Origin: Malacoraja senta | Lineage: Eukaryota | DNA: 64,000 nucleotides | Assembly: GCA_038087875.1 (NCBI GenBank) | Contig: CM075990.1 | Location: forward strand, 14,200,001 to 14,264,000 | Direction: 5' to 3' | In this document: positions 255 to 62,639 of the stretch, in pieces | Layout of the letters: the number at the start of each line of letters is the position of its first letter | Position numbering within the stretch: position 1 is the stretch's first letter | The notes under the pieces: model-generated | The model's database searches: none | What the model saw: only the letters and a program-made list of their open reading frames with translations | Told to the model about the DNA's origin: nothing | Translations under genes and position numbers: made by a program

Positions 255-1075
255 TAAGGTTCAATGTTACCACCGACAGACTTAAAGACCATTAGTCTAT
301 AATGAACTGTCAGCTGTGACTCAGTGGGTAATGGATGCAAGTCCCACCCCAGGCACTTGAGCCCAAGATTCGCACTGACACACCAATGCAACACTGAGAG
401 ATGATGTACTGCTGGAGTACTTCAGATGGACGTAAAACTAGGATCAACTGCTCTCTCTAAAATGATCAGAAACTTCTCTCTCATGTCCCAGTTAATTTTT
501 ACTGCCCACTTAAAATAGTCATCATCTGCTATTTCTGGGAGCTTGCTAAGATAACCAGTTGCCACGTTCTTACATTGCAACGGTGACTACTCCTCAAAAG
601 TATTCAGCAGCTCTAATGCTGGTTGGGAAGTCCTAAGTTCACAGAAGTGGCTGTAAAATATGAGCTTTTTTCTGCTCTATTTGAAAGCACTGCAGATGCT
701 GGAAATCAGAAGCACTCAGCTAGTCAGGCAGCATCTGTAGAAAGAGAAACTTAATGAATGTTTCAGGCTAGAGATCTTTCAGGTCACCAACTGGAAATGT
801 TTCTTTATCTATTTAAAGCTGGTTTATTCTAGCCTGTGTCCATGCTGTATAGTGTGTGTCCATGCTGTATAGTTTTCTGATGGTTTCCATTAGTCTGAAG
901 CATTGTCCATCCAGATCTGAAGCATTGTCTATCCATTCTCCACATAGATGCTGTCACAACAAAATCCCGAGAATTATTGGCCAAAAAGTTGAAAGCTGAT
1001 AAGGTGCTAATGTGAAGTAAGGGCATGGGTTTATGAAAGTGTTATGCTGATGATTGTTCAGCATTAAATCCATTA

Positions 1076-1268
1076 CGGGCCTGTCCCACTTAGGCGACTG
1101 CCACAAATTTTCCAACATGTTGAACATTTTTCGCCAACAGTGGCGACAATTTTTGCTGTCGTACGTTGTCGTAGGTTGTTGTAGGTTGTCGCCAGGTGTC
1201 GTAGGTGAATTTCATTAAAACTAGTCCCTGGCAGTTGCCTAAAGAGTTGCCTAAGTGGGACAGGCCCT
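1076..1268. mobile_element. PIF/Harbinger-type MITE
   Basis: TIR GGGCCTGTCCCACTTAGGC; TTA TSD (1073-1075, 1269-1271). Confidence 0.88.
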
Positions 1269-2763
1269 TTAGGAATTTTTGTGAATAAAGTATATTCTGA
1301 AATAATCAAAGCCATTTTATGATGGAATTTCATTGATTGTCTGGTATGGCCGTCACCAAAATTCCAGTTGCAAATGGAGGCTAATCATGGAATTGAAATA
1401 AGTATGGGCTGTAGCTCCAAACCTTTCCAAAGTTGTGGTCGTAGATGGAGAACATGACAGAGACACAAAAACTACAAAATCTGGAATCTCGAGCAACATA
1501 CAAGGTGTTAGAGACACTTGGCAGGTCAGGCAGCATCTGTGGAGGGAATATACAGGCAACATATCAGGTCAGGACCCTCTCTCAGATGAACGGGAACCAT
1601 ACGAGAATCATACGTCATGGAAACAGAACCTTCAGCACACGGTGTCCCACCATAGTGGCCAACTAACCAATCAATCTGCACATTTTTGGGGGTACGTGGG
1701 AGGAAATAGGAGCCTCCAGGGTAAATCCACCCGATCACAAGAGGAACATGCAAATGCCACACAGACAGACACCATAGGTCAGATGCAGACCAAGGTCTCT
1801 AAAACCCTAACCACTATGCCAACCCTAAGATGAGATCAGGTGAAAACTTGATGGGAATTGCCCTGCCTGCCCCCTTACTTCCACAGCAGGGGCATTGAGT
1901 TGGTGTTGCCATTATGTGGTGCATTGAACCTGATCTAGAACAATGCTGGAGCAGAGCATTAATAACAGCAGATGCCAGATTGGTCAAAGAGCCTTGTTTC
2001 AGTTTGCACACACATCTGGAGTGGAAATGGCAATTATACATCCTAGAACCCTGCACTGATATGTACAACAAAGAAAAAAAGTGTTATTCTAAATAGGCTA
2101 AATGCTACTTATTCATATTCCAGGATGTGGACATGGCTGGAATTTTTTGCTCATCCCTAATTGCCCTTGAATTGGCTTGTTAGGTCACTTCAAGGACCAT
2201 TTCAGTGTAAACCCCAATGTTGGGGCCCAGAGTCAGACAGAGCCCAGACCAGGTATGTATTGCAAATGTTCACCCTGTGGGTCACCAATTTATGAAATTA
2301 TTTATTTTATACAACAGCCCCATACCTTTGTGACCAACATAACCACCAAGCAAGTTTTGCTTTGAGTTCCGGGTTATTAGCTACAAGTAAGTTTCCTGTC
2401 TGCCGCGGTGGGTCTTGAACTCATGTCTGGTCACAGCTCTGACGAAGGGTCGTTGACAAAAATTAAGAGTTACAGGATACAGCCTGACCTGCTGAGTGGT
2501 CCTGCTTTTAACCTGTGTACTGCTAGTTTGAAACTTCACTGTGGCACCACAGAGGAAGCACTGGGTTCATTCCCCTCTGGTCAACAGCAAACAAGAATTA
2601 GGTTGCCATAGGACACAAATAGCAGGATTAACTCGGCAGGTCAGGCAGCATCTGTGGAGAACACGGATAGGTGATGTTTCAGGTCAATACAATACCCTTC
2701 TTGATTCAGAATTATGCGGCATCTACACATTGCCTGCATCTTCTCAGAACCATCTCAAGCCAT

Positions 2764-3088
2764 TTGTTTAGTTTAATTTGGAGATAAAGCAGGAACACAG
2801 GCCCTTCAACCCATCAGGTCCACATCAACCATCGATCATTAGCTCACACTAGTTCTATGTGATCCCACTTTCTCATCCACTCGCTACACACTAGAGGCAA
2901 TTTACAGAAGTCAATTAACTCATAAACCCGCACGTCTTTGTGATTTGGTAGAAAACCAGAGCACCTGGAGGAAACCCATCCAGTCACAGGGAGACCATGC
3001 AAACTCCACGCAGACAGCACCCGAGATCGGATTTGAACCCCCAGGTTTCTGGCGCTGTGAGGCAGCTGCTCCACCTGCTGCGCCACCC
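2764..3088 (-). mobile_element. V-SINE
   Basis: Reverse complement of the tRNA head, V-domain and tail. Confidence 0.78.
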
Positions 3089-3372
3089 AGTGTTGGCAGT
3101 GAATTTCTCTGAGAAATGCTCCTGGGTTTACAGGCCAGTGGTACTGAAACATGTATGCACGGCAGGACCCTACAAAAAAAGGCGGAATGGCATGTTGATC
3201 CTAGTACTGAGTGAGACAGGAGTCCTGGGATACTCTCCACCTACCTTGCAGGTTGGTCTCAGGGTGGGGGGGGGGGGGGTCTCAGGATTGAATCCCCACA
3301 CTCCTACCCTCCACCCCCACACTCCTGCAGGACCACCAGCCACGGGGCAGCTTGACTGGAAGCCCCAAAGAG

Positions 3373-4124
3373 AGTCATAGAGTGATACAGTGTGGAAATA
3401 CCCCATTTGGCCCAACTTGCCCACGCCAGCCAACATGTACCAGCTACACTACTCCCACTGGTCTGGGCCCATATCCCTCTAAACCTGACATACCTGTCTA
3501 AATGTTTCTAAAACATTGCAATAGGACCTGCCTCAACTACCTTCCCTGGCAGCTCGTTCCATACACCTACCAACCTATGTGTGGAAAAAGGTACCCCTCA
3601 GATTCCTATGAAATCTTAACCCCCCTCATCTAAAACCTATGCCCTCCAGTTCTCAATTCCCTCACTCTGGGCAAGAGGCTCGATCGATGCGTTTAAACAA
3701 TCTATTTCTCTCATGGTTTTATACACCTATATAAGATCAACCCTCATCCTCCTGCGCTCCTAGGAATAGACTCCCAGCCTATTCTGCCTCTCCCTGTAGC
3801 TCGGGCCCTCGAGTCCTGGCAACATCCTCGTAAATCTTCTCTGTGCCTCGACCCCAAACGTCACTCATTCCTTCTCTCCAGAGATGCTGCCTGTCCTGCT
3901 GAGTTACTCCAGTTTTTTGTGTGTCTATTCTCTGTACCCTTCCCAGCTTGCGAGGCCTGCAGGAGAACGTTCCCCGCCAGGTGTTTAAGTTCATAAGTGA
4001 TAGGAGCAGGAATTAGGCCATTCGGCCCATCAAGTCTACTCCACCATTCAATCGTGGCCGATCTATCACACCCTCCTAACCCCATTCTCCTGCCTTCTCC
4101 CCATAACCCCTGACACCCGTACTG
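3373..4124 (-). mobile_element. CR1-type 3' fragments with a nested pLTR (3848-3927)
   Basis: CR1-like 3' UTR/ORF2 end. The nested pLTR is flanked by a TTCTCTGT(G/A)CC duplication. Confidence 0.7.
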
Positions 4125-4466
4125 ATGAAGAATAAGGGCATAAGTACGTTTATTGGCCAAGTATTCACATACAAGGAATTTGCCTTGGTGCTCAGCCCAC
4201 AAGTAACAACACGACCGACAGTGACAGTGACGAATGACTCAGAAAACACTAAACATTAATAATAATCAAACATTAATGATAAAACACCATTGATCAAGCT
4301 TGTGAACCAACAAAATACCAGATCAGATAGAATCTATCTATCTATGCTTTAATAATATCCTTCATAAAAGAAGGGCAGTTGTGCAAGGGTGGGAGACGGA
4401 AGGGGTTAACAAGGTAAGAAGGGGAGGGGATGGGGAGGGGGATGGATATAGAAGTCTGATACTCAC

Positions 4467-4537
4467 AGCTCGCCAGTGACAAGGACGGGCCCCGACCGCT
4501 GCCAACAGCACAGGGTTCCCACAGTAGCTTCACCCAT
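4467..4537 (-). CDS. PSD: Candidate coding part of an alternative first exon of PSD (MGEATVGTLCCWQRSGPVLVTGE-L)
   Basis: Strong Kozak GCGATGG at 4537; 71 nt to a GTGAGT donor at 4466-4461; ends in phase 2, the same phase as the intron opened at 16837; lies in CpG-rich unique sequence. Confidence 0.6.
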
Positions 4538-4964
4538 CGCAGCAGCCGCTCAGTCAGCGCTTATGCCTGGAGAAGGGGTGGGGTGGGATGTTGTCTGAGG
4601 TGACCCCCGCTCTGACCCAAGCCCCCACCCCCGTCCCTCCGGCAGCCATGGGCAGCTGGGCAGCTCGACCGGCCTGGCTCAGCGTCTCCCGCAGTCGGTC
4701 TGTCTCTCTGTCTCTCTGTCTGTGTCTCACTCTCAGCTGCGGCTGGATCGGAGCGCTAGAGGCAGAGGGAGAGGGAGAGGCAGAGGCAGAGGCATTCTCC
4801 GCACACACTCTCTCTCATGCCCTGCTCAACACCCTGGCCTTGACCGACCAATGCAAACCAGCTACTCCTCGCTCACACCGTCCCTCGGAGTTTGCAGAGA
4901 GGACAGACGCACCGAGACTCCTTCAGCCCCATCCGTCCCTGCACTCGTGTCTGGTCTGGTCTGG

Positions 4965-5078
4965 TCTCTCTCTCTCTCTCTCTCTCTTCCCCTCTCCTTC
5001 CTTCTCTCTCTCTCTCTTCCCCTCCTCTCTCTCTCTCTCTTCCCCTCTCCTTCCTTCTCTCTCTCTCTCTCTCTTCCC

Positions 5079-5118
<40 letters not shown>

Positions 5119-5161
5119 CCTCTCCTTCCTTCTCTCTCTCTCTCTCTCTTCCCCTCTCCTT

Positions 5162-5202
<41 letters not shown>

Positions 5203-5253
5203 CCTCTCCTTCCTTCCTTCCCTCTCTCTCTCTCTCTCTCTCTCTTCCCCTCT

Positions 5254-5294
<41 letters not shown>

Positions 5295-5299
5295 CCTCT

Positions 5300-5339
<40 letters not shown>

Positions 5340-5373
5340 CCTCTCCCCTCTCTCTCTCTCTCTCTCTCTCTCT
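4965..5373. repeat. Compound (TC)n / TTCCCCTCTCCTTCC polypyrimidine tract
   Basis: About 410 bp of pure pyrimidine on the plus strand. Confidence 0.97.
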
Positions 5374-5868
5374 CACGCCAGCCTCTTTTTCACGCTGTTC
5401 CCGTTCCAGCTGCCTCACCCAATCTCCCGTCAGGGTCACTTGCAAACCGTGCAAACCTCTGCACTTCGCTGGAGATTGATGCTGCCTGACCCCCTCGCCC
5501 CCACCCACCACACCTCCCTCCCTTCACTCTTCACCAGGCCTCCCTCCGGCTGCTGCACTTCATACTTCTATTGTCTGCTCTACACAACTGTGTGTGTGTC
5601 AGGTCAGGTCAACCCCTCCTTCCAAACTTTCCTCGGAGGTGGAGTTAGGTAAGGAGGTGGGTGCAAGAGAGACTGGTCTCCATATCTGTCCACTTGTAAA
5701 CTAATCACGACAAGCCTCATTCCTGTCAATGATTTCGTTTCAGTTGCTGGTTCCCTGTCCTGCGACTCTCACCTTCAGATCCTCTCTCTCCATTCCCGTC
5801 TTCATCTCTCTCTCCCCTTTCCTCACACTCTTTCTACATCTCTCTCTTCACACTCCCTCCCTCTCTCA

Positions 5869-6151
5869 GGGGCCACAGTTGAAGATTAAGGAGTAAGCCA
5901 TTTAGAGAGGAGACAAGGAAACACTTTATCTCACAGAGAGTGGTGAGTCTGTGGAATTCTCTGCCTCAGAGGGCGGTGGAGGCAGGTTCTCTGGATACTT
6001 TCAAGAGAGAGCTAGATAGGGCTCTTAAAGATAGCGGAGTCAGGAGATATGGGGAGAAGGCAGGAACGGGGTACTGATTGGGGATGATCAGCCATGATCA
6101 CATTGAATGGCTCAAAGGGCCGAATGGCCTACTCCTGCACCTATTGTCTAT
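5869..6151 (+). mobile_element. CR1 3' end
   Basis: GAGAGTGGTGAGTCTGTGGAATTCTCTGCC...GGCCGAATGGCCTACTCCTGCACCTATTGTCTA. Confidence 0.88.
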
Positions 6152-6233
6152 TCTCCCTCCCTCCCTCTTCCTTCCCTTCCCTCTGACTCACTTTCCCCTC
6201 TCTTTTCTCTTCAATTCTCTCTTCCTCTCATGG

Positions 6234-7160
6234 AAACATAGAAAATAGGTGCAGGAGTAGGTCATTCTGCCCTTTGAGCCCTTCAATGTGATCATGGCTG
6301 ATCATCCAAAATCAGTACCCCGTTCCTGCTTTTTCCCCATATCCCTTGATCCCTTTAGCTCTAAGAGCTAAATCTGAAGGCTCTGTCTCACGGGTTTGCG
6401 GTCATTGGCGGTGAGGCGCGGCGTCACCGGAAGAGGGGACCGCACGGCAACCGCGAGAGCGCCGCGCCTATGCCACGGGAGCGCCACACGGATGCTGCGC
6501 GGGGGCCGAGTGATCTCCGTACGGCCGGATCCACGAGCTTGAGGCGTCGGGTGATGACGACATCGCGCAACGCGACGCGCTACACGATGACGTCATTTCG
6601 GTTCGCGGGGCTGTGGCGGTGCTGGTGGAGATCGCAGCGCTGTGTCGGCGGCTGTGGCGGTGAAAATTGGACTCACGGCGCTCGTGCCGCACTGGCGGCG
6701 GCTGTGGCGGTACGAAAGTTTTTTTCGACATTGTCGGTTTTTTGGGACCTACACCGCACGGCGCCGGCAGTGTGCATTGGACCGACCCCGCGGTCTCTGG
6801 CAGTCCACGAGCAGTAGAAACTTCCAGTTTCACCGCCAATGACCGCAAACCCGTGAGACAGGCCTTTAACTTTTAAAAACTTCCAGTGAATTGGCCTCCA
6901 CTGCCTTCTGTGGCAGAGAATTCCACAGATTCACAACTCTCTGGGTGAAAAAGTGTTTCCTCATCTCAGTCCTAAATGGCCTACCCCTTATTCTTAAACT
7001 GTGAGCCCTGGTTCTGGACTTCCCCAACATCTTTGGGAACATTTTTCCTGCATCTAGCCTGTCCAATCCCTTAAGATTTTTATCTATTTCTCTACGATCC
7101 CCTCTCATCCTTCTAAACTCCAGTGAATACAAGCCTAGTCGACCCATTCTTTCATCATTT
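6234..7160 (-). mobile_element. CR1 3' part split by the MITE at 6378-6866
   Basis: [15 protein letters not shown]...FFTQRVVNLWNSLP, plus CR1 tail at 6234-6375. Confidence 0.88.
6378..6866. mobile_element. CpG-rich Harbinger-type MITE nested in a CR1 3' end
   Basis: Long TIR (CTGTCTCACGGGTTTGCGGTCATTGGCGGTGA); TGA/TAA flanks; CR1 sequence resumes on both sides. Confidence 0.85.
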
Positions 7161-16010: not shown

Positions 16011-16456
16011 TCACTGGCTTCCCATTTCCCACCGGATCACCTACAAAATCCTGGTCCTCACCTACAAAGCCCTCAACAACCTGGCCCCCCCTTATCTCAT
16101 TGACCTCCTCTCCCCCTACCAACCCTCACGGTCCCTCAGATCCACATCAGCTGGTCTCCTCTCCACTCCGAAATCAAACCTCTGCACTTTTGGAGGCAGA
16201 GCCTTCTCCAGGGCAGCTCCCAGGCTCTGGAATTCCCTCCCACAACCGGTCCGAAATTCTGAGTCCCTCACCATCTTCCAGTCCCGCCTCAAGACCCATC
16301 TCTTCACCTCTGCATACCCTTAGTCCCATGTTCCCCCCCCCCCTCTGTCTTACTGCTCTATTTTGTTTTGTTTATTCCTGACTCTCAATTGTAAAGCGAC
16401 TTTGAGTCCTGAAAAGCGCTATATAAATAAAATCTATTATTATTATTATTATTATT
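16011..16456 (+). mobile_element. Young L2 LINE 3' part
   Basis: HWLPISHRITYKILVLTYKAL...HLFTSAYP, same 3' UTR and (ATT)n tail. Confidence 0.95.
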
Positions 16457-18210: not shown

Positions 18211-19676
18211 GAGATACAGCATGGATACAGGCCCTGCAACCCATAGAGTCCACGCCAACCAGCAATCACCCATTCACACTCGGGCAAACTTACAGAAACC
18301 ACTTAACATACAAATGGGATGTGGGAGGGAAAACAGAGCACCCAGGGGAAACTCCTTTGCGATCACAGGGAGAACGTGCAAATACCTCTTGTCAACACCC
18401 AAGGTCAGGATTGAACCCAGATCTCTGGCGCGCGAGATTGCAATTTTACCAGCTCAGCCATTGTGCAACCTCTGATGAGAATATGGGATTAATTTGGGCA
18501 TGAGTATAACTGGGTGGCTGATGGGTGGATGTGAAGAACTGTTGTCGTGCTTTATCCCTGTATGACTGGGTGAGCATCGACAGGGCCGGCTAAGGGAGAG
18601 CTGCAGTGTACATCTCTAGAAGGGTGAGGCAGATGGATACAAATTAAAAGTCTGATAGACCTGAAATAGAAATGGAAAATAAAACCAAATAGTTGGGAGT
18701 GTGAGTCGCAATGCTGGAATGGCTGATTAATTAAAAAACTGTCAAATCTGAAGACAATAATATCAAGAGTCAAGAGCAGTCACAATGTGCTGGAGCAACT
18801 CAGCGGGTCAGGCAGCATCTCTGGAGAAAAATGATAGCTGACATTTTGTGTCAGGATGTTTAATTGTTATATGTACCGAAAACAAACCGATAACATTCAT
18901 ACTTGCAGCAGTATAACAGCCTGTAAACACATTACCAGTTATATGTGGCATATTTGGGTCAGGTTGGGTGTTTTTTCTGATAAAACGTCCAGGTTTGGAT
19001 CAGTCTGTGCCATACCTGTGCTGTACCTAGGACTGGATTATCTGCTCTGTACATCAGGAGTCCTCAGCTGTGGCTCAACAGCAATGAATGTGCAGCACAG
19101 TACAAGATCTCTCTGCTTTTCTGCTCTGGATTGTGTTGGGAATTGGAAAATAGAGAATGTTCTCGGGTTCGACTGGGTTCTAATCAGGAGCATTCGATTG
19201 TATCTCCCAGCGAGTTTCTAACTCCACCGCTTTTTCATGCAGTGTGTCCAAGATCACAACTCACTTTGTCAGACGGAAACCCCTCTCGATGGACAGATGA
19301 CGTTTTGGGTCATCTGAAGAAGGATCCCAACCTGAAATGTCATCTGTCCAATTCCCTCTGCAGATGTTGCCTGACCCACTGGGTTCCTCTAGAAGATAGA
19401 TACAAAATGCTGGAATAACTCAGCGGGACAGGCAGCATCTCTGGACAGCAGGAATAGGTGATATTTCGGGTCTGGACCTTTCTTCAGACTGAACTTTGCT
19501 TTTGGCTCAAGATTCCAGCATCTGCAGTTTCTTGTATCTCACGAAACTCCTCGCTATTTTCTCGTGGTTCTGTTAATTATGCCGAACCGGAGAGATTTGG
19601 GCACTCACTCTCCTGCCAGTAGAGGGAGCTGCTCTACAAACTGGGGTGAAGGCCTTGGCACATTACAGGAGCTGAA

Positions 19677-20046: not shown

Positions 20047-20819
20047 TTAGGTTCAGGCTTATTATTGTCACATGTACCAAGGTACGGTGAAAATTGTTAC
20101 TTTGAATACTCTCCCAGCAGATCAGGTATATCACATCAATCAAATCAAACTCAAGTACAACAGATAGAGCAAAAGGGAAGATACAGAGAGCAGAAAATAG
20201 TTGAAAACATTTTAGCACGTCATTTCCACAGACAAAGTCCAATGTTCTCGAAGGTCCCTCTACGGCAGGAGAGTGAGTGTCCAAATCTCTCAGGTTTGGG
20301 ATAATTAACAGAACCACGAGATAATAGAGAGGAGTCTTGTGAGATACAAGAAACTGCAGATGCTGGAATCTTGAGCCATAAACAAAGTTCAGTCTGAAGA
20401 AAGGTCTCCACCCGAAACATAACCTATTCCTGCTGTCCAGAGATGCTGCTAGATGTCCAAGGTCTTCACCCCAGGTTCTGAAGAAGGGTCTCGAACCATA
20501 AAACATCATCCATTCCTTCTCTCCAGAGATGCTGTCTGTGCCGCTGAGTTACTCCAGCATTCTGTGTCTATAAGCGGGGAATGGGATTGATGGGAATGCC
20601 CCGTGAGCTGGCATAGACTTAATGGGCTGAATGGCCCCTATTTAACAGTGAGGAATTTCTGGAAACACCTTGCAGATCCTTCCTTGTCGTGGGATCTAAC
20701 CACAGTCGTACAGCATGGAAACAGGCCATTCGGCTCAATCTGCTCATAGTGACCAAGATGCCCCATCCATCCTAGTCCTACCTGCCTGCATTTGGCGTAT
20801 ATACATTAAACCTTTCCTA

Positions 20820-24173: not shown

Positions 24174-24256
24174 GTTGGATTTAAAGGTTGGTTGTTGGTC
24201 TTGACCTTTATGGTGGGGCACCATCTCTGACACTTGCCCCGCTGGATACACATTAC

Positions 24257-24761
24257 CTGTCAGCAGCAGCAGACGAGGTCTCGTAGAATACTTCATCGTC
24301 TGGGGCTTTGGACTCTTCCTCTCCACTCTCTCCTCCACTCCCAGCGTTCCCATCTGGCATGGACAACCCGGGAGAAATGGAATGAGAGTCCACCTGGACA
24401 TCACATCCTACTGTTGAACCAGGGTGTTGCAGACTCTGGCACTTCTCTGGGCTGTCCATGTTGGCTTCAGCCATGACCTCATCTAGATTGGTTTCCTGGT
24501 AGCGTCTGACTGGCACCGCGTCCAGGTCTGTCTCCGAGAACTTGGTCCTTCTGGATGCATCTCCTGGTTTGCAATTCGTGGAATTCCCATTTGGCAAAGG
24601 AGAGACCTTTGGACCATTGGCCTCCTCCCTCAAGCCGCGATTGACAGGCTTCCAAGTCCCAGATGTTCCATCGTTGGACACCTCGTTCCACTCATTCCGC
24701 ACTGTTTCATTATCGTCAACGGCGTGTGGATTTGCTAATGTCTGCTGGATCTGCGATTCAG
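24257..24761 (-). CDS. PSD: PSD coding exon, 505 nt (AESQIQ...KFSETDLDAVPVRRYQETNLDEVMAE...DDEVFYETSSAAAD)
   Basis: Acceptor TTTTCTCCTTACAG|CT (phase 1); donor CAG|GTAATG (phase 2). Matches recalled human [26 protein letters not shown] and DDEVF. Confidence 0.93.
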
Positions 24762-24908
24762 CTGTAAGGAGAAAACAGAGTGTTAGGCACCAACTCCTCA
24801 GCCCCCATTCAAGAACACAACTAAATCCACCTCTATGCATTGGAACTGAAAACACTTTGAATAGCTACTGTATGTTTGAACACAATGTGGCAACAAGCAC
24901 TAGCCTTT

Positions 24909-25228
24909 AAGCCCTGTCCCACGGTACGAGCTCATTCCAAGAGCTCTCCCGAGTTTTAAAAAAATCAAACTCGTGGTAAGCACGGAGAATGAACGTAGCG
25001 GGTACGCCGGAGCTCAGGGACGTCTCTTAGCGCTAACGGCAGGTACTCGGGAAGACTCGCTAATGGCAGGTAAGCACGGGAAGACTCGTGAAGATTTTTC
25101 AACATGATGAAAAATGTCCACGAGAGCCCCGAGTACCGACGAGTGGCCAATACCGTAAATCTCCGAGTTCGAATCAGGGCAAACTCGGGAGAGCTCTTGG
25201 AATGAACTCGTACCGTGGGACAGGGGTT
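24909..25228. mobile_element. Harbinger-type MITE
   Basis: About 45-bp TIR CCCTGTCCCACGGTACGAG.TCATTCCAAGAGCTCTCCCGAGTTT; TTT flanks. Confidence 0.85.
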
Positions 25229-25370
25229 TTTGTTATTAAGAGAAAGGAGTGGACCCATTTGAGTTTATCATAACAAGAAATATTGATTGCATTTACACCA
25301 AATGCTGAAGGAACTCAGCAGGTCAGGCAGGATCTGGGGAGAGAATGGGCAGTCAACGTTTTAGGTTAGG

Positions 25371-26270
25371 TGTAGATTAATGATGCATGTGAACCGATCA
25401 CTAACTCCACCCCACCATAACACTATACTAACGCCTATTCCCAGCACCGTCAGCTAGGATGAACTGACAACACCTTGTCTTTAGATGCTGCCAAGTTACA
25501 GTGCTGATTAAAGATGTGTTTTAATCATATACTGTCTCCGGTGTCGATTTACATGGTGTCATTTAAAAAAAAAAAATTTTTTAATTAAAGTTCATACCGA
25601 ACCTCAGCAAACTAAGCTCCACACTGTGGCAGCTGACCAAAAAGGACACTGCATGGTCATGGTTCCAGCAACACCAGGATGCCTTTGATGTTCTAAAATC
25701 CAAACTGACCAGTGCACCGACCCTGACTTTTTTCGACCTGAAACGTCCGGTGGCGATCACCTGCGATGCCTCGAAATTCTGGCTCGGCGCAGCCTGCTTG
25801 CAACCGTCTGATGATGGCACCCTACTACCTGTCGCGTATGCCTCTCGCACAATGACCGACACGGAGCAGCACTACGCGCAAATCGAAAAGGAACTGCTGG
25901 CTGTCGTCTTTGCCTGCTCCAAATTACACGACTTCGTCCATGGCAACACGTTCCCGGTCGAGACGGACCACCAACCACTGGTGACAATCCTGAACAAGCC
26001 CATCCATGCCGCGCCAGCTCGCTTGCAGCGCATGATGAAGCAGCTGCAGCGGTACGACTTCTGTATTACCTACACAAAGGGTAGGGACATGCATGTCGCA
26101 GACACACTCTCTCGTGCACCTCGAGCATCTTGCGAACATCACCCCCATGAACGGGAGAATTTCACGGTTCTCGGTGTCGATCTCATCTCCAGTAAGCAAC
26201 TGCGCCTCCTGGCCACGCATACTGCCAATGATGATACGCTTCAAGCCCTCTCATCCATCATCAATCTACA
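25371..26270 (+). mobile_element. Rearranged Ty3/Gypsy element: 183-bp LTR, PBS stub, RT-end/RNase H fragment, inverted LTR start
   Basis: LTR TG(25371)...ACA(25553) with ATTAAA; TGGTGTCA PBS stub; pol peptide KFIPNLS...CDASKFWLGA...YAQIEKELLAVVFA...ETDHQPL...VADTLSR; TTAGG TSD at 25366-25370 and 26271-26275. Confidence 0.9.
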
Positions 26271-27290
26271 TTAGGTCCCTTCTTTAGACCCTGTCCATTC
26301 CTGCCACTGATGCTACCTGAACCGCTGAGTTCCGCCAGCACTTTGTGTTTCGCTCAAGGCTCCAGCATGTAGTTTCTCATGTCTCTGTTTTACTTGCATT
26401 TATTTGCTTCATAGCTCTGACAGCACCAAATACCACTGGGAATAAGAACAGAACTGTAATATATCAAAGGATTATGGGGATCAATTGTGCAAAGAACCAA
26501 AGATAGATTCACTATTGACACTGGATCTTTGGCCCGCTGAGTTTACACTTATCATCAATCACCCATTTACACTCATCTCATGTTTTATTCCCCCAAGTTT
26601 CTCATCATCTCTCTGCAATCTATTGCTATCACACACCATTATCCTGCATGTCATTGGAATATAGCAGAGCCTCTATAGAACATACCTGTTTAAGAAACCC
26701 ATTGGGAATCTTTATCTCATTGCTCAGACTTTACTTCACCTTGTTGAGCAATTTTAGGAAACGGCAAAGACACCAGAATTTGCAATTGAAGCTCACAGTT
26801 TATCAGTCAATCCAAGCTATCAAAGGCCATTTTCATCAACACATTCTTAACATTGGGTGATTGCAGTGCAGCCAGTAGAGTTGCTGCCTCACAGCTCCAG
26901 TGACCGGGGTTAAATCTGGACCTCCGATGCTGTCAGTGTGTAGTTTGCACGTTCTCTCTGAGATGACGTGGATTCTCCATTTTCCTCCTACGTCCCACAC
27001 TAACGTGGATTTATAATTTAATAGGTCACTCTAAATTGCTCCTTGTGTTTAGATGGGTTGTAGAATATGAAGTTGTTAGGAATGTACAGAGAATAGGTGG
27101 CAGGGGATAATTGGCCATGGAATGGCAATACTCTGTGAGCCGGTGCAGACTCGATGGACTGAATGGCCTCGTTTTAGGTCCTGAGGAAATATGAAAGCAG
27201 TTTCCACAAATCTACCCATGACAGCATCAATGTGACTGCCAATGGCTAGTGACATCTTTTCAGCATGTCCAAGATGGATTCGACATTTAC

Positions 27291-27798: not shown

Positions 27799-28876
27799 GG
27801 TGGGTATTAAAGGAAGATAGGGAGGTGAAGGAGCATTGGACATTTCAGAACTTAGAGCATTGACAGCTGGAATTATTTATTGCGGAAATGGTAAAAGGGG
27901 GCAGAATTGGAAGAGTTGATTGGAATGGGGATTGATGAGATACTGATTGAGGCAGGGGACTTGCCATTACAGAGAAGATGAATAGTGCAAATTCCTCATC
28001 TTTTCCACAATCATTAACCCATAGCTGGAAATCCACATCATAAATCACACATCCCAAGTGTTAGCTGTGACTCCATGGGCAACACTCCTTTCCTTTGGTG
28101 ATAGGGTTGAAGGTACAAGTCACGCACCAGAACCTTCAAACCAAACATTCATGCTGATAAACAGGATGTGTAGGATGGAACTGCAGATGCTGGTTTACAC
28201 CAAGGATAGACACAAAATGCTGGAGTAACTCAGTGGGACAGGCAGCGTCTCTGGAGAGAAGGAATGGATGACATTTCGAGTCGAGGCTCTTCTGCAGAGG
28301 ATAATGGACAGATGTCATTTTAGGTCAGGGCCCTTTTTCAGAAATGTCATCTGTCAATTTCCCTCCACAGATGCCCCTGACTCACTGAGTTCCTCCAGCT
28401 GTTTGTGTTCCAGCATCTGTAGTCTTTTATGTCTTGAAACATTGTTTGTATTGGGCATGCAATTCAATTGAAGGTTTGATTGAGATGAATAAATGCTGCA
28501 AGGCTGCAATAGTCCAACACCATCCATCGGCCAACAAATGAATGAATACTTTATTGTCGCATGTGACAAGTCACGGTGACTCCTATAACCTCCTTCACCT
28601 GCATCAACCTGTCACTTGCCAGGTTTTGTCCTGCACCCACTTCTTTTTTCCAGCATTCTTCCCCCTACTACTACATAAAGAAGGGTCCCGGCCTGAAACA
28701 TCATCTGTCCACAGTTGTTACATGACCCGTTTAGTTCCTCCAGCAACTTGGGATTTTTCTGCTCAAGATTCATGCTTCCGCAGTCCCTTGGGCCCTCCAA
28801 GCCCCACAAGGCCCTCCAAGCTCACAACTTTGGTGGCGCTAGACAGAAAGATTTATTCAACTCTTGGATATTATTT

Positions 28877-30402: not shown

Positions 30403-30568
30403 GATTCAGCAGTCTGAGCAGCTAGGATGTACCGACAACCTATCGTCCTCAACGCTGCTAAGTTTCAGTATAAGTATAAGGAACGAGTGTTAGTATAAGT
30501 GTTATAGTGGGGTGAAGTTAGTGATGCTGGCTTATGTGTGATTGGATCACAAGCATCATCAATCTACA
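30403..30568 (-). mobile_element. Relic of a related Gypsy LTR with an internal inversion
   Basis: About 30470-30568 is the reverse complement of the LTR start (TGTAGATTGATGATGC...CACTAACTTCACCCCACTATAACAC). About 30418-30469 matches the LTR middle on the plus strand (CAGCTAGGATG...GCTGC.AAGTT.CAGT). Confidence 0.7.
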
Positions 30569-31773
30569 GGTAGGGGGGAAGGTGGGGGAGGAAATTGCAG
30601 GGAATAAAGGGAGCATCTCCAATTGGTTGAGACTGGTTGACCTACTATGGGAGTTAGGATATTGCGGCGTTCAAAGTTCGGGTATCGTGTTTCTAATGGC
30701 GAGGCTGTGCGACGTGACGAGCAAACCAGACTGTACTTCAAAACAAACAAAGGCAAAAAGAAAAACCGAGCCAAAATAATGGCGGCATGAGTGGCTCTCT
30801 GAAGTGGTTTGAATAGTAAAACAGGCCTTCCCCATAATGGAATAGAATGTAATGGTTGTTAGATGTGGCAGTGTGAGAGAGGGGTCGTGTGGAGCATAAA
30901 CACTGCACTCTCTATCTCCCAGCATCTGGATCAGCGCGGGCGACTTCTGCCGGTCCTGTTTACACGCTCCTGTCATTCCGCACGCATGTACAACAAAGGG
31001 CAATTCACTGCTGGAGACTCAGCTGTCTTTAATAGTCTCAGTAACACTCAGCCTCTGAATGAGCTGGACAAGTGCCAGTCAATAGACACACTTAACGCTT
31101 GGGACCCCAATCACCACAAGCAACCTGGATCGATTCCAAGACACTCGCCTAATCTGCCCCACAGTCCAGGTGAATGGTGTGCAGAAAGGAACTGCAGATG
31201 CTGGTTTATACCGAAGACAGACAGAAAGTGCTGGAGTAACTCAGCGGGTCAGGCAGCATCTCTGGAAGAAAAGGATGGGTGACACCTCGTGTTGGGACCT
31301 TTCTTCAGACTTCGGGAGACTGTAGAAGGGTCCTGACCCGAAACGTCAGCCATCCTTTTCCTCCAGAGATGCTGCCTGGCCTGCTGAGATACATTGCATC
31401 TCACTCACTATATGAATGCTGGGTCTGCAGACTGTGACATCAGGCTCTATGTCATACTCACCTGGGCAGGTTTAACATCTGCGGGAAGTTGATGGATATA
31501 TGGAGAGAATAAAAGGGATTAATATAAATGGGTGCTTGATGGTCGGCACAGACGGGACGGGTCAAAAGGTCTGCTTTTGTGCACTATGACTTTGAAGCTT
31601 TTCGTTCGATCATTTCTTACCCGCTCTTCAGTGGTTAATTAGTCCCCTCGCTGAAATTCCAATAGAATGGAGAGAGAGGCTGGTGGTGAGGAATCTGCAC
31701 TGGGTGGCGATCTGAAGATGAACGGCAAGGGCAAGGGCAGCAGTGGCAAGAACCAAGCTCGGTTGACAGTCTA

Positions 31774-42295: not shown

Positions 42296-43916
42296 TAATA
42301 ATAATAATAATAATAATAGATTTTATTTATATAGCGCTTTTCAGGACTCAAAGTCGCTTTACAATTGAGAGTCAGGAATAAACAAAACAAAATAGAGCAG
42401 TAAGACAGAGGGGAGGGGAACATGGGACTAAGGGTATGCAGAGGTGAAGAGATGGGTCTTGAGGCGGGACTGGAAGATGGTGAGGGACTCAGAATTTCGG
42501 ACCGGTTGTGGGAGGGAATTCCAGAGCCTGGGAGCTGCCCTGGAGAAGGCTCTGCCTCCAAAGGTGCAGAGGTTTGATTTCGGAGTGGAGAGGAGACCGG
42601 CTGATGTGGATCTGAGGGACCGTGAGGGTTGGTAGGGGGAGAGGAGGTCAATGAGATAAGGGGGGGCCAGGTTGTTGAGGGCTTTGTAGGTGAGGACCAG
42701 GATTTTGTAGGTGATCCGGTGGGAAATGGGAAGCCAGTGTAGTTCTTTGAGAACTGGGGTGATGTGGTGCCAGGATTTGGTGTGGGTAATGAGTCGAGCG
42801 GCTGCATTTTGGACCAGTTGGAGTCGTTTGATGCTGCTGGAATTGATTCCGAAAAGAAGAGAGTTACAGTAGTCCAGTCGGGAGGAGATGAAGGCATGGA
42901 TGAGTCTTTCAGCAGCGGGGGGTGTGAGAGACGATCTGATTTTTGCAATGTTGCGGAGGTGAAAAAATGATGTTTTGACAACATGGCGGATGTGAGGCTC
43001 AAGGGAGAGGGTTGAATCAAAGATCACGCCAAGGTTGCGGGCCTGAGGAGATGGGGAGACAGTGGTGCCATCAATAGTGAGAGTGGGGTTGTTAATTTTA
43101 GTGAGTGTTGATTTGGAGCCAATGAGGAGAAATTCTGTTTTGCTACTGTTTAATTTAAGGAAGTTGAGTTGCATCCAAGATTTGATGGCTGATAGGCAGG
43201 AGTTGATATGGGAGAGAGGGGGTGGTGGGGGGACTTGGTGCTGAGATAGATCTGGGTGTCATCAGCATAGCAGTGGAAGTCCCGGTTGAAGTGACGGAGT
43301 ATATGACCAAGGGGGAGGATGTAGATGATGAAGAGGAGGGGACCAAGAACGGAGCCTTGGGGAACGCCTTGAGTGACAGTGGCTGTGGCAGAGGTGTGGT
43401 TATGGAGAGAGATGAAGTGGGATCGGTTGGAAAGGTAAGAACGGAACCAGCTGAGTGCAGAACCTTCAATGCCAAGGTCCCTAAGTCTGGTGAGCAGGAT
43501 GTTGTGGTTGACGGTATCGAAGGCTGCACTCAGGTCGAGGAGGATGAGGATATTGAGGGAGCCAGAGTCAGCAGAGGTAAGGAGGTCATTGAGGACTTTG
43601 AGGAGAGCAGTTTCTGTGCTATGGAGGGGGCGAAAGCCAGATTGGAGGGGTTCGAATAGGTTATACGCGAGGAGGTGGGAATGAAGTTGTGACGCGACGA
43701 TGCGCTCCAGGGTTTTTGAAAGAAAGGGGAGGTTTGAGATGGGGCGGTAGTTAATGAGAGAGGAGGGATCAAGACCAGGTTTCTTTAAGATTGGTGTGAC
43801 AGCAGCAGTTTTGAAAGCAGAGGGGACAATTCCTTGGGACAATGAGGAGTTGAAAAGATTAGTGAGGTAGGGGCAGAGAGCAGGGAGGCAGGACTTCAGC
43901 AGGGGAGTGGGGAGAG
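42296..43916 (-). mobile_element. Young L2-clade LINE, 5'-truncated, RT ORF2 with one frameshift near 43200
   Basis: YRPISNLPFLSK, QSGFR..HSTETAL, LDLSAAFDTV, GVPQGSVLGP, YADDTQ, LHWLP; (ATT)n tail; inserted in a V-SINE tail. Confidence 0.95.
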
Positions 43917-44200
43917 CACACAGCACAGAAACAGGCCCTTCAGACCACCGAGTCTGCGCCGACCGGCAATCCCCGCACACTAACACTATCCTACACACAA
44001 TTGGGACAATTTACATTTATACCAAGCCAATTAACCTACAAACCTGTACACCTTTGGAGTGTGGGAGGAAACCGGAGATCTCGGAGAAAACCCACACAGA
44101 TCACGGGGAGAATGTACAGACTCCATACAGACAAGCACCCGTGGTCAGGATCGAACCCAGGTCTCTGGCGCTGTAAGGCAGCAACTCTACCATAGTGCCC
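43917..44200 (-). mobile_element. V-SINE whose (AAACT)n tail (42278-42295) is displaced by the L2 insertion
   Basis: SINE body continues across the L2. Confidence 0.8.
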
Positions 44201-60281: not shown

Positions 60282-61813
60282 CCACACATGACTTCTGTAG
60301 CAAAACATCTCCACCTCCCCATCAAGCGAGCAGACACAAGAAACAGATTTACCAACAAAGACACAAATTGCTGGAGTAACTTCAGCAGGTCAGGCAGCAT
60401 CTCCGAGAACATGAAGAACATGGTCTGAAGAAGGGTCCTGACCCAAATAGTCTCCTATCCATATTCTTGAAAGACACTACCTGACCCATTGATTACTCCA
60501 GCACTTTGTGTCTTTTTCCCCCATGAAGATACTTTGGCTCACCAGAACTCAGGACGTGCTTAGACTGAGAACTGATCCTATGTTTTACAACATGGCAGTT
60601 GGGTGAGCAAAGGGTGCAATTAAGATAGCTTTTCATCTCCTTCAATAGGAACACAGACAGAGGATTGCTACGGGTGCTGTCGGTACAGATTTTGTACGTT
60701 CTCCCTATGACTGCATGAGTTTTCTCCAGTGCTCCAGTTTCCTCCCACAGACCTCTCCAAAGACGTACAGGTTTGTAGTTTAATTGGCATCTGTAAAATT
60801 GTAAATTATCCTTAGTGTGTGGGATATAGTTAGTGTACACGTTAGCACGGACTTGGTGGGCGGAAGGGCCTGTTTCCGCACTGTCTAAAGTCTAAAAACT
60901 GAATGTATCCCAGAAGGTTTTCTCATAAGATCTCCACTTACATCCATTCCTCTGGGTGTACATTTCACTCCTCCTCTCATTATCTGACACTCTTTTATCT
61001 CCTTTCAATCTCTAGCTTTTGTTACTTACTCTCGCATTTGCGAATCAAACCTCCCTCACCTGTATCACATTCTAGGTTTTGTCCTGACCTCCCACTTCTT
61101 TTCCAGCTTTCTCCCCCTCCCCACATCTACTTCCCCACAGTCATCAGGCTATTAAACCTGGCTCAGACAAAACACTGAGCTTTATTAGCCAATTAACTGT
61201 CTGTATATATATTAGCCAATTAACTGTGTGTGTATATATTTATAGAATGGTATATGGACACACTGATCTGTTTTGTAGTCAATGCCTACTATGTTCTGTT
61301 GTGCTGAAGCAAAGCAAGAATTTCATTGTCCTGTCAGGGACACATGACAATAAACTCACTTGAACTTGAACTCCCCTCCCTATTACCATCAGCCTGAAGA
61401 AGGGTCCAGACCCAAATGTCATCTGTCCATTCCCTCCACAGATGTTGCCTGACCCGTTGAGTTACCCCAGTACTTTTTTGCCTTGATCACTTTTTGCCTT
61501 GTCCACAATAGTTTATTGACCACCTTGTGGAGCCTGACGTCCAATTCAGATACGAGGAGACTCACTGCGTGGTTGATTAGATGATTCAGCAATCAATTAT
61601 TGGCCTTGTGTGATATTTTTACCCATTAAAGACAAGTGGTTTGTTTGCTGTACTATCTGGAGCATTCATTAGTAATTCCTAGAGATCTCTGGTCAAACCT
61701 GCATATTTCAAATACAGAAATACAAACCTGTATTTCTACTCACATGGTTTAGTTATGTCTGCTCAGGGTAGAAATTTTCAATTTTAACATTTGTACTCCA
61801 CTACCAACATTCG

Positions 61814-62639
61814 TTGGCTCCAAATCAACACTCACTAAAATTAACAACCCCACTCTCACTATCGACGGCACCACTGTCTCCCCATCTCCTCAGGCCCGCA
61901 ACCTTGGCGTGATCTTTGAATCAACCCTCTCCCTTGAGCCTCACATCCGCCATGTTGTCAAAACATCATTTTTTCACCTCCGCAACATTGCAAAAATCAG
62001 ATCGTCTCTCACACCCCCCGCTGCTGAAAGACTCATCCATGCCTTCATCTCCTCCCGACTGGACTACTGTAACTCTCTTCTTTTCGGAATCAATTCCAGC
62101 AACATCAAACGACTCCAACTGGTCCAAAATGCAGCCGCTCGACTCATTACCCACACCAAATCCTGGCACCACATCACCCCAGTTCTCAAAGAACTTCACT
62201 GGCTTCCCATTTCCCACAGGATCACCTACAAAATCCTGGTCCTCACCTACAAAGCCCTCAACAACCTGCCCCCCCCTTATCTCATTGACCTCCTCTCCCC
62301 CTACCAACCCTCACGGTCCCTCAGATCCACATCAGCTGGTCTCCTCTCCACTCCGAAATCAAACCTCTGCACTTTTGGAGGCAGAGCCTTCTCCAGGGCA
62401 GCTCCCAGGCTCTGGAATTCCCTCCCACAACCGGTCCGAAATTCTGAGTCCCTCACCATCTTCCAGTCCCGCCTCAAGACCCATCTCTTCACCTCTGCAT
62501 ACCCTTAGTCCCATGTTCCCCTCCCCTCTGTCTTACTGCTCTATTTTGTTTTGTTTATTCCTGACTCTCAATTGTAAAGCGACTTTGAGACCTGAAAAGC
62601 GCTATATAAATAAAATCTATTATTATTATTATTATTATT
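61814..62639 (+). mobile_element. Young L2 LINE 3' part
   Basis: Near-identical to 42296-43120; (ATT)n tail. Confidence 0.95.

Follow-up and report, generated by a model that had tools for sequence, protein, structure and literature searches.

How does a single Gypsy LTR come to be closed at its far side by an inverted copy of its own first bases, between two perfect copies of a 5-bp target site? The insert that raises this question occupies positions 25371-26270 (900 bp) of the window, by which we mean the whole 64-kb stretch of DNA that was analyzed. We consider it likely that the insert is a one-off, dead insertion of a misbuilt cDNA of a K02A2.6-like Gypsy element, with a U3 att end on both sides. 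Below we describe the boundaries and parts of the insert, weigh the ways in which its right end may have arisen, and compare it with mobile families and with known systems.

Boundaries and parts of the insert

The insert is flanked by TTAGG on the left (25366-25370) and by a perfectly matching TTAGG on the right (26271-26275), both on the plus strand. It interrupts a dispersed host repeat (25295-26345), an imperfect palindrome of ~150 bp belonging to family D3, which has 15 copies within the window and which we take to be a pLTR (Penelope). Once the insert and one 5-mer are taken out, the host repeat is restored. When this empty site was compared with the paralogous host repeats at 60361-60511 and 28291-28409, it was colinear with them and had no gap at the junction. 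The gap-free alignment implies that the 5-mer was single before insertion, and therefore that the duplication is real and that both ends go back to a single event, whether joined in it or kept from it. The earlier note had described a 900-bp insert between TTAGG copies, with removal restoring the host repeat and with ends that are identical as inverted copies at 15/17 bases, and this description holds in full; the same end-to-end score is reached by only 2 of 63,100 windows of 900 bp, one of which is the insert itself. A structure scan, requiring TGT..ACA ends, a 12-nt inverted repeat in which one mismatch was allowed, and a perfect 5-bp duplication, returned the insert as the sole match in the 64-kb window and gave no matches in 10 shuffles or in 25 loci with related elements.

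The surroundings of the insert hold other features. About 140 bp to its left lies a conventional MITE-like element (24909-25228, 320 bp) with terminal inverted repeats that agree at 46/50 positions. Positions 24253-24762 on the minus strand are a probable host exon behind a pyrimidine tract and an AG acceptor near 24763-24780, with no Pfam match; if this is an exon, the insert lies ~600 bp upstream of it, in an intron and antisense to the gene. Elsewhere in the window, repeat copies at 42297-43125, 61811-62639 and 16012-16456 are near-identical (99%), one of them adjoining an RVT_1 frame (43150-44010), and probably represent a recently active LINE-like family. Two inverted arms of 186 nt (19432-19617 and 20264-20449) are 92% complementary and stand 646 nt apart.

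Read along the plus strand, the insert begins with a single Gypsy LTR (25371-25553, 183 bp, TGT...ACA), which has the layout of the related LTR pairs, carries an ATTAAA signal at 25507-25512 and starts with the U3 tip that forms the left att end (25371-25385). An 8-nt stub of the primer-binding site follows (25554-25561), with the same letters that stand after the 5′ LTR in several related elements; it is the primer-site and LTR layout of eight relatives that identifies 25371-25553 as the LTR and 25554-25561 as the stub. Next come a 26-nt, partly palindromic filler made up of A and T only (25562-25587), at a deletion behind the stub, and an open pol fragment of 225 codons (25588-26262). The fragment comprises the end of RT, RNase H and the linker before integrase, and its frame matches Pfam RT_RNaseH_2 (PF17919, E 1.3e-30) and RT_RNaseH (PF17917). 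It begins at residue 712 of the 1351-1353 residues of two full-length relatives (P0004 and P0008). Compared with such relatives (~1,350 codons), ~710 codons are absent in front of the fragment and ~415 behind it, and the deletion at the filler is what took the leader, gag, protease and most of RT. The filler region folds no better than shuffles. Downstream, neither strand repeats any exact 11-mer of the LTR; there is no second LTR, and apart from the A12 of the filler the insert has no purine run of 10 or more and no polypurine tract. This agrees with the inventory in the earlier note, which had listed one LTR, the 8-nt stub, the A/T filler and an RNase H fragment and neither a 3′ LTR nor a polypurine tract.

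Protein comparison places the pol fragment among K02A2.6-like Gypsy polyproteins. Of 5,843 candidates, 3,378 are long homologues at E ≤ 1e-20, and most of the top ones have integrase domains. The best of these long homologues is 67% identical to the insert pol, as is the best match that bears a name, LOC129707187 of Leucoraja erinacea. Together with the repeats, which seem skate-like, this named match suggests that the window comes from a cartilaginous fish. Best identities according to search length were 67% for longer, 75% for similar and 52% for shorter proteins. The three protein searches thus yielded no relative above 75% that could stand for the parent family, and no parent DNA was found; among the matches listed, no second protein carries the junction of pol and inverted tip.

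For comparison within the clade we fetched 25 loci with related elements, which are probably host-animal DNA within viral and MAG collections. Direct-repeat candidates were present at 13 of these loci; two contig-end overlaps, two repeats of 77-79% without LTR features and one LTR cut by a contig start were left out, leaving eight relatives. Their LTR pairs measure 113-181 bp. Their 5-bp duplications are perfect in five of the eight, match at 4/5 positions in one and are lacking in two, and the eight letters of the primer-site stub stand directly after the 5′ LTR in identical form in four, with one change in three and not at all in one. At loci L119-L142, contigs labelled as bacterial or archaeal MAGs contain Gypsy elements of animal type, of which several have identical LTRs and duplications; these are probably host contamination of those genomes.

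Origin of the right end

The right att end (26256-26270, minus strand) is an inverted copy of the first 15 LTR bases. It agrees with the insert's own LTR at 14/15 positions and with the start of a second, related LTR piece ~4.2 kb away (30554-30568) at 15/15, the latter match breaking at base 16; between the two ends of the insert the inverted match stops at 15-17 bp. The agreement with an independent LTR of the family is complete, which makes later drift, or variation within the family, the best account of the one base at which the insert's own LTR differs. We also recovered the junction reported earlier, in which pol (SSII codons) runs into the inverted end through the microhomology CATCATC: these 7 nt (26256-26262, plus strand) belong both to the Ile-Ile codons of pol and to the inverted U3, and up to four further bases at the junction could be pol, which would lengthen the microhomology.

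The inverted 15-bp U3 tip, the 7-nt microhomology and the normal duplication are observed, and standard LTR reverse transcription suggests how they may have come about. Within the particle, plus-strand DNA primed at the polypurine tract would have left its template after ~15 bases. The 3′ end of this 15-nt nascent strand may then have annealed, by way of the 7-nt microhomology, to a complementary pol word on the sense strand and been extended as a minus strand toward the 5′ end. With the left LTR supplied by normal plus-strand strong-stop DNA, the result would be a linear product with U3 at both ends, which the integrase of an intact element, acting in trans, could have processed at both U3 ends and inserted through a 5-bp staggered cut as usual. 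The deletion behind the primer-site stub, together with the A/T filler, would be a second event and more likely a later host repair, because strong-stop transfer normally needs the primer site and a deletion that trims this site to 8 nt is more likely to have come afterwards.

Integration of a rearranged cDNA with two U3-type att ends had been proposed in the earlier note and is the best-supported reading, although deletion or repair after a normal insertion had been left out of account there. The perfect 5-bp duplication and the restored host repeat speak for two U3 ends, as do the perfect duplications around five of the eight related LTR pairs. Against them stand the single copy, the fit of the insert's own U5 end to the right end (8/10 bases) and a drift of ~3%, which allows two substitutions. 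No DNA of the parent family was found (best protein 75%), so the comparison of the right end is made with homologues and not with the U5 or pol of the parent. The footprint of HIV-1 integrase is ~20 bp per end (PMC11054761, in a passage that describes no two-U3 integration), and a 15-bp tip would be near the scale needed. In the literature searched, older closed-access work being outside its scope, we found no paper on a natural Gypsy element with two U3 ends or on the in vivo use of two such ends by a Gypsy integrase.

Among the rivals, host repair after a normal insertion is the strongest, but we consider it unlikely. A two-LTR element would have been inserted in the normal way and later have suffered a double-strand break; the broken pol end would, by way of the microhomology, have copied 8 bases of an inverted U3 tip and then been sealed to the final bases of the 3′ LTR, so that the inverted patch would be real, yet integrase would never have met two U3 ends. 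The filler at the left deletion is consistent with such repair, and the last 4 bases, which U5 and the inverted U3 of the insert share, would offer a landing site. Further evidence comes from the second LTR piece (~30412-30568), which, like the 8/10 match to the insert's own U5, went unmentioned in the earlier note. The U3 part of this piece lies on the minus strand, matches the insert LTR at 22/25 and 34/37 positions and has a 17-bp stretch that is absent from the insert. The next LTR segment (30419-30469, an alignment of 52 columns) is inverted relative to the U3 part, and a 10-nt patch resembling nearby sequence sits at the join. The two segments are adjacent in the insert LTR, as a local inversion predicts. 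The piece contains no pol and has no clear duplication, the only candidates matching at 4/5 positions, which is chance level, and not lying beside a proper end. Together, the filler and this rearranged piece show this Gypsy family to be subject to host repair that leaves templated patches. For the insert, however, host repair would have had to switch template twice, the second time within the last few bases of the element, and to draw on a template at least 0.9 kb away, and templated inserts mostly derive from sequence near the break.

The second LTR piece was also considered as another U3-U3 element; we rejected this since it breaks at adjacent LTR positions and has no credible duplication. 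A hairpin at the 9-nt inverted repeat in the middle of the LTR was rejected as the cause of its inversion (folding z -0.12, -0.44 and -0.52 against shuffles). The piece adjoins a GC-rich region (30600-30980) that contains words resembling CCAAT and, near 30780, a possible start codon, and that may be a gene start.

Alternatively, the right end may be a U5 remnant. A simple deletion would have joined pol to the final 8-10 bases of a normal 3′ LTR, and these would resemble the inverted U3 because LTR ends are imperfectly symmetric. This origin seems to us rather improbable. It would account for the 8/10 agreement with the insert's own U5, both differences being transitions and one lying at a CpG. 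Dead elements commonly suffer deletions, and with the drift of the insert at ~3% (6/94 conserved columns, 66 homologues) two substitutions have a probability of ~0.03-0.23. The extra five-base match to the inverted U3 would, however, have to be chance, and five pol bases beside a 10-nt end match it by chance at ~1.3e-3. The microhomology between pol and U5 is only 2 nt. Nor do the related LTRs have the required symmetry: the perfect terminal run in the eight relatives is 3-5 nt, never longer, with 6-11/15 matches, as against a run of 8 and 14/15 matches in the insert. A rough likelihood ratio for an inverted tip over a U5 remnant is 1,000-7,000, before priors and with CpG hypermutability left aside.

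Mobility and family membership

An insert bounded by inverted tips could also be one copy of something mobile, and the earlier note had raised a TIR-bounded, MITE-like lineage derived from an LTR retrotransposon. We found no support for such a lineage: there is one copy in the window and the collections searched, and parts needed for retrotransposition are absent. That the insert belongs to a multi-copy, TIR-bounded, non-autonomous family derived from Gypsy, whether MITE-like or nascent Ginger-like, is accordingly improbable in our judgment. Equally doubtful is the fuller version, in which Gypsy reverse transcription would have produced a TIR-bounded element in one step (the 15-bp inverted tip), this element would recur as a small family moved by integrase in trans, as an intermediate toward a Ginger-like transposon, and the rearranged LTR piece 4.2 kb away would be its second trace.

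Both the inverted TGT..ACA tips with their 5-bp duplication and the piece at 30412-30568, which on the plus strand reads as an LTR segment and then an inverted U3 ending in the same 15 bases, speak for such a family. That piece breaks at adjacent LTR positions like a local inversion, however, and has no duplication, and only one element with the full structure is present in the 64 kb. The protein searches, with nothing above 75%, and the DNA searches, with no relative among at least 117 metagenome motif matches or the viral contigs, point the same way, although these collections barely cover this organism and such absence is weak evidence. The metagenome matches to the 16-nt tip motif, at least 117 loci, are all short, reaching 29 nt at most, and due to chance, and the pol fragment is encoded at none of them; in viral contigs the single-protein search gave no relative, the alignment one and the 27-nt LTR motif none. 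Within the 64-kb window we found no autonomous partner sharing the tips, and tblastn with five long relatives found no other piece.

An R repeat, a purine tract and a full primer site are all missing from the insert, which also argues against a family and means that the insert can no longer go through reverse transcription. To move by cut-and-paste it would have to be excised by Gypsy integrase, and the Discussion of PMC2836005 treats excision by a Gypsy-like integrase as unexplained even for Ginger. The insert is a remnant without function that cannot copy itself.

As for class, the RT/RNase H sequence, the TG..CA LTR with its primer-site stub and the 5-bp duplication are those of Gypsy, and the two direct LTRs and polypurine tract of an intact or TRIM-like LTR element are missing. 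TGTNR termini as in Ginger are present, both ends reading TGTAG, but these are common to Gypsy and not diagnostic; only RNase H families match, there is no integrase-like DDE transposase, and there are no TIRs of 40-270 bp. MITEs occur as many near-identical copies at distinct sites, and here there is 1 copy in the 64-kb window. No tyrosine recombinase of the DIRS type was matched, and the 5-bp duplication is present; DIRS elements are not known to have one. The insert is a Gypsy derivative and not a member of Ginger, MITE or DIRS.

As a single dead copy without integrase, the insert changes little. If two U3 ends were indeed integrated, it would mean that the integrase of a vertebrate Gypsy element accepts U3 on both sides, even where one end measures only 15 bp, and that minus-strand synthesis can be primed by a nascent plus strand. 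Bao et al. 2010 (PMC2836005) regard it as unclear by what chain of events an LTR retrotransposon becomes a TIR transposon, and suggest two chance neighboring insertions; one-step mispriming would be an alternative to that route.

Internal pol ends and known systems

The earlier note had stated that a cryptic att site native to the parent pol would refute an inverted LTR end. Integrase would then have used a terminal word that pol naturally holds, as reported for one-LTR HTLV-1 proviruses, in which a 6-bp repeat is joined to internal pol or env (PMC6950816). The junction columns could be followed in 161 of 240 homologues, 9 others having ended early and 70 having fallen short. Those 161 read Ile-x-x-Gly-Trp at this place. 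The first two junction positions are occasionally filled by Asn and Leu (8/161 and 4/161, respectively), but the codon at the terminal CA is Gly in 148/161, His in 1 and Gln in none, which makes native pol an unlikely source of the right end at the protein level. Judging from these columns, the right end is unlikely to be native, and it would take a large coincidence for native sequence to match the family's own U3 at 15/15 positions; a cryptic att site is thus very unlikely. An assembly artefact is hardly credible, as a perfect duplication, a restored host repeat and a one-base difference between the tips are unlike collapse or chimerism. The insert is probably a real, unusual and well-preserved replication accident.

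Among known systems, K02A2.6-like Ty3/Gypsy elements of fish and marine invertebrates share with the insert their RNase H, a short TGT..ACA LTR, a TGGTGTCA-starting primer site directly after the LTR and a 5-bp duplication. The insert differs from them in having one LTR and an inverted U3 as its right end, and in lacking gag, protease, most of RT, integrase, the purine tract and the 3′ LTR. DIRS-1 is likewise a retroelement bounded by inverted repeats, but DIRS elements rely on a tyrosine recombinase instead of a DDE integrase (PMC3950715), whereas the pol, primer site and duplication of the insert are of Gypsy type. Ginger1 and Ginger2/Tdd resemble the insert in their inverted TGTNR-type termini and in their proposed derivation from Gypsy; as described in PMC2836005, they have TIRs of 40-270 bp, duplications of 4 bp (5 bp in TDD-4/5) and an integrase-like transposase, and are mostly multi-copy, whereas the tips of the insert measure 15 bp, it carries RNase H but no integrase, and a single copy of it is known. 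The defective HTLV-1 proviruses (PMC6950816) share with the insert a normal-length duplication around a one-LTR element that ends inside pol, and the loss in these one-LTR proviruses is taken to have preceded integration. Integrase is reported to use an internal sequence at their end, whereas the end of the insert is a copy of its own U3 tip.
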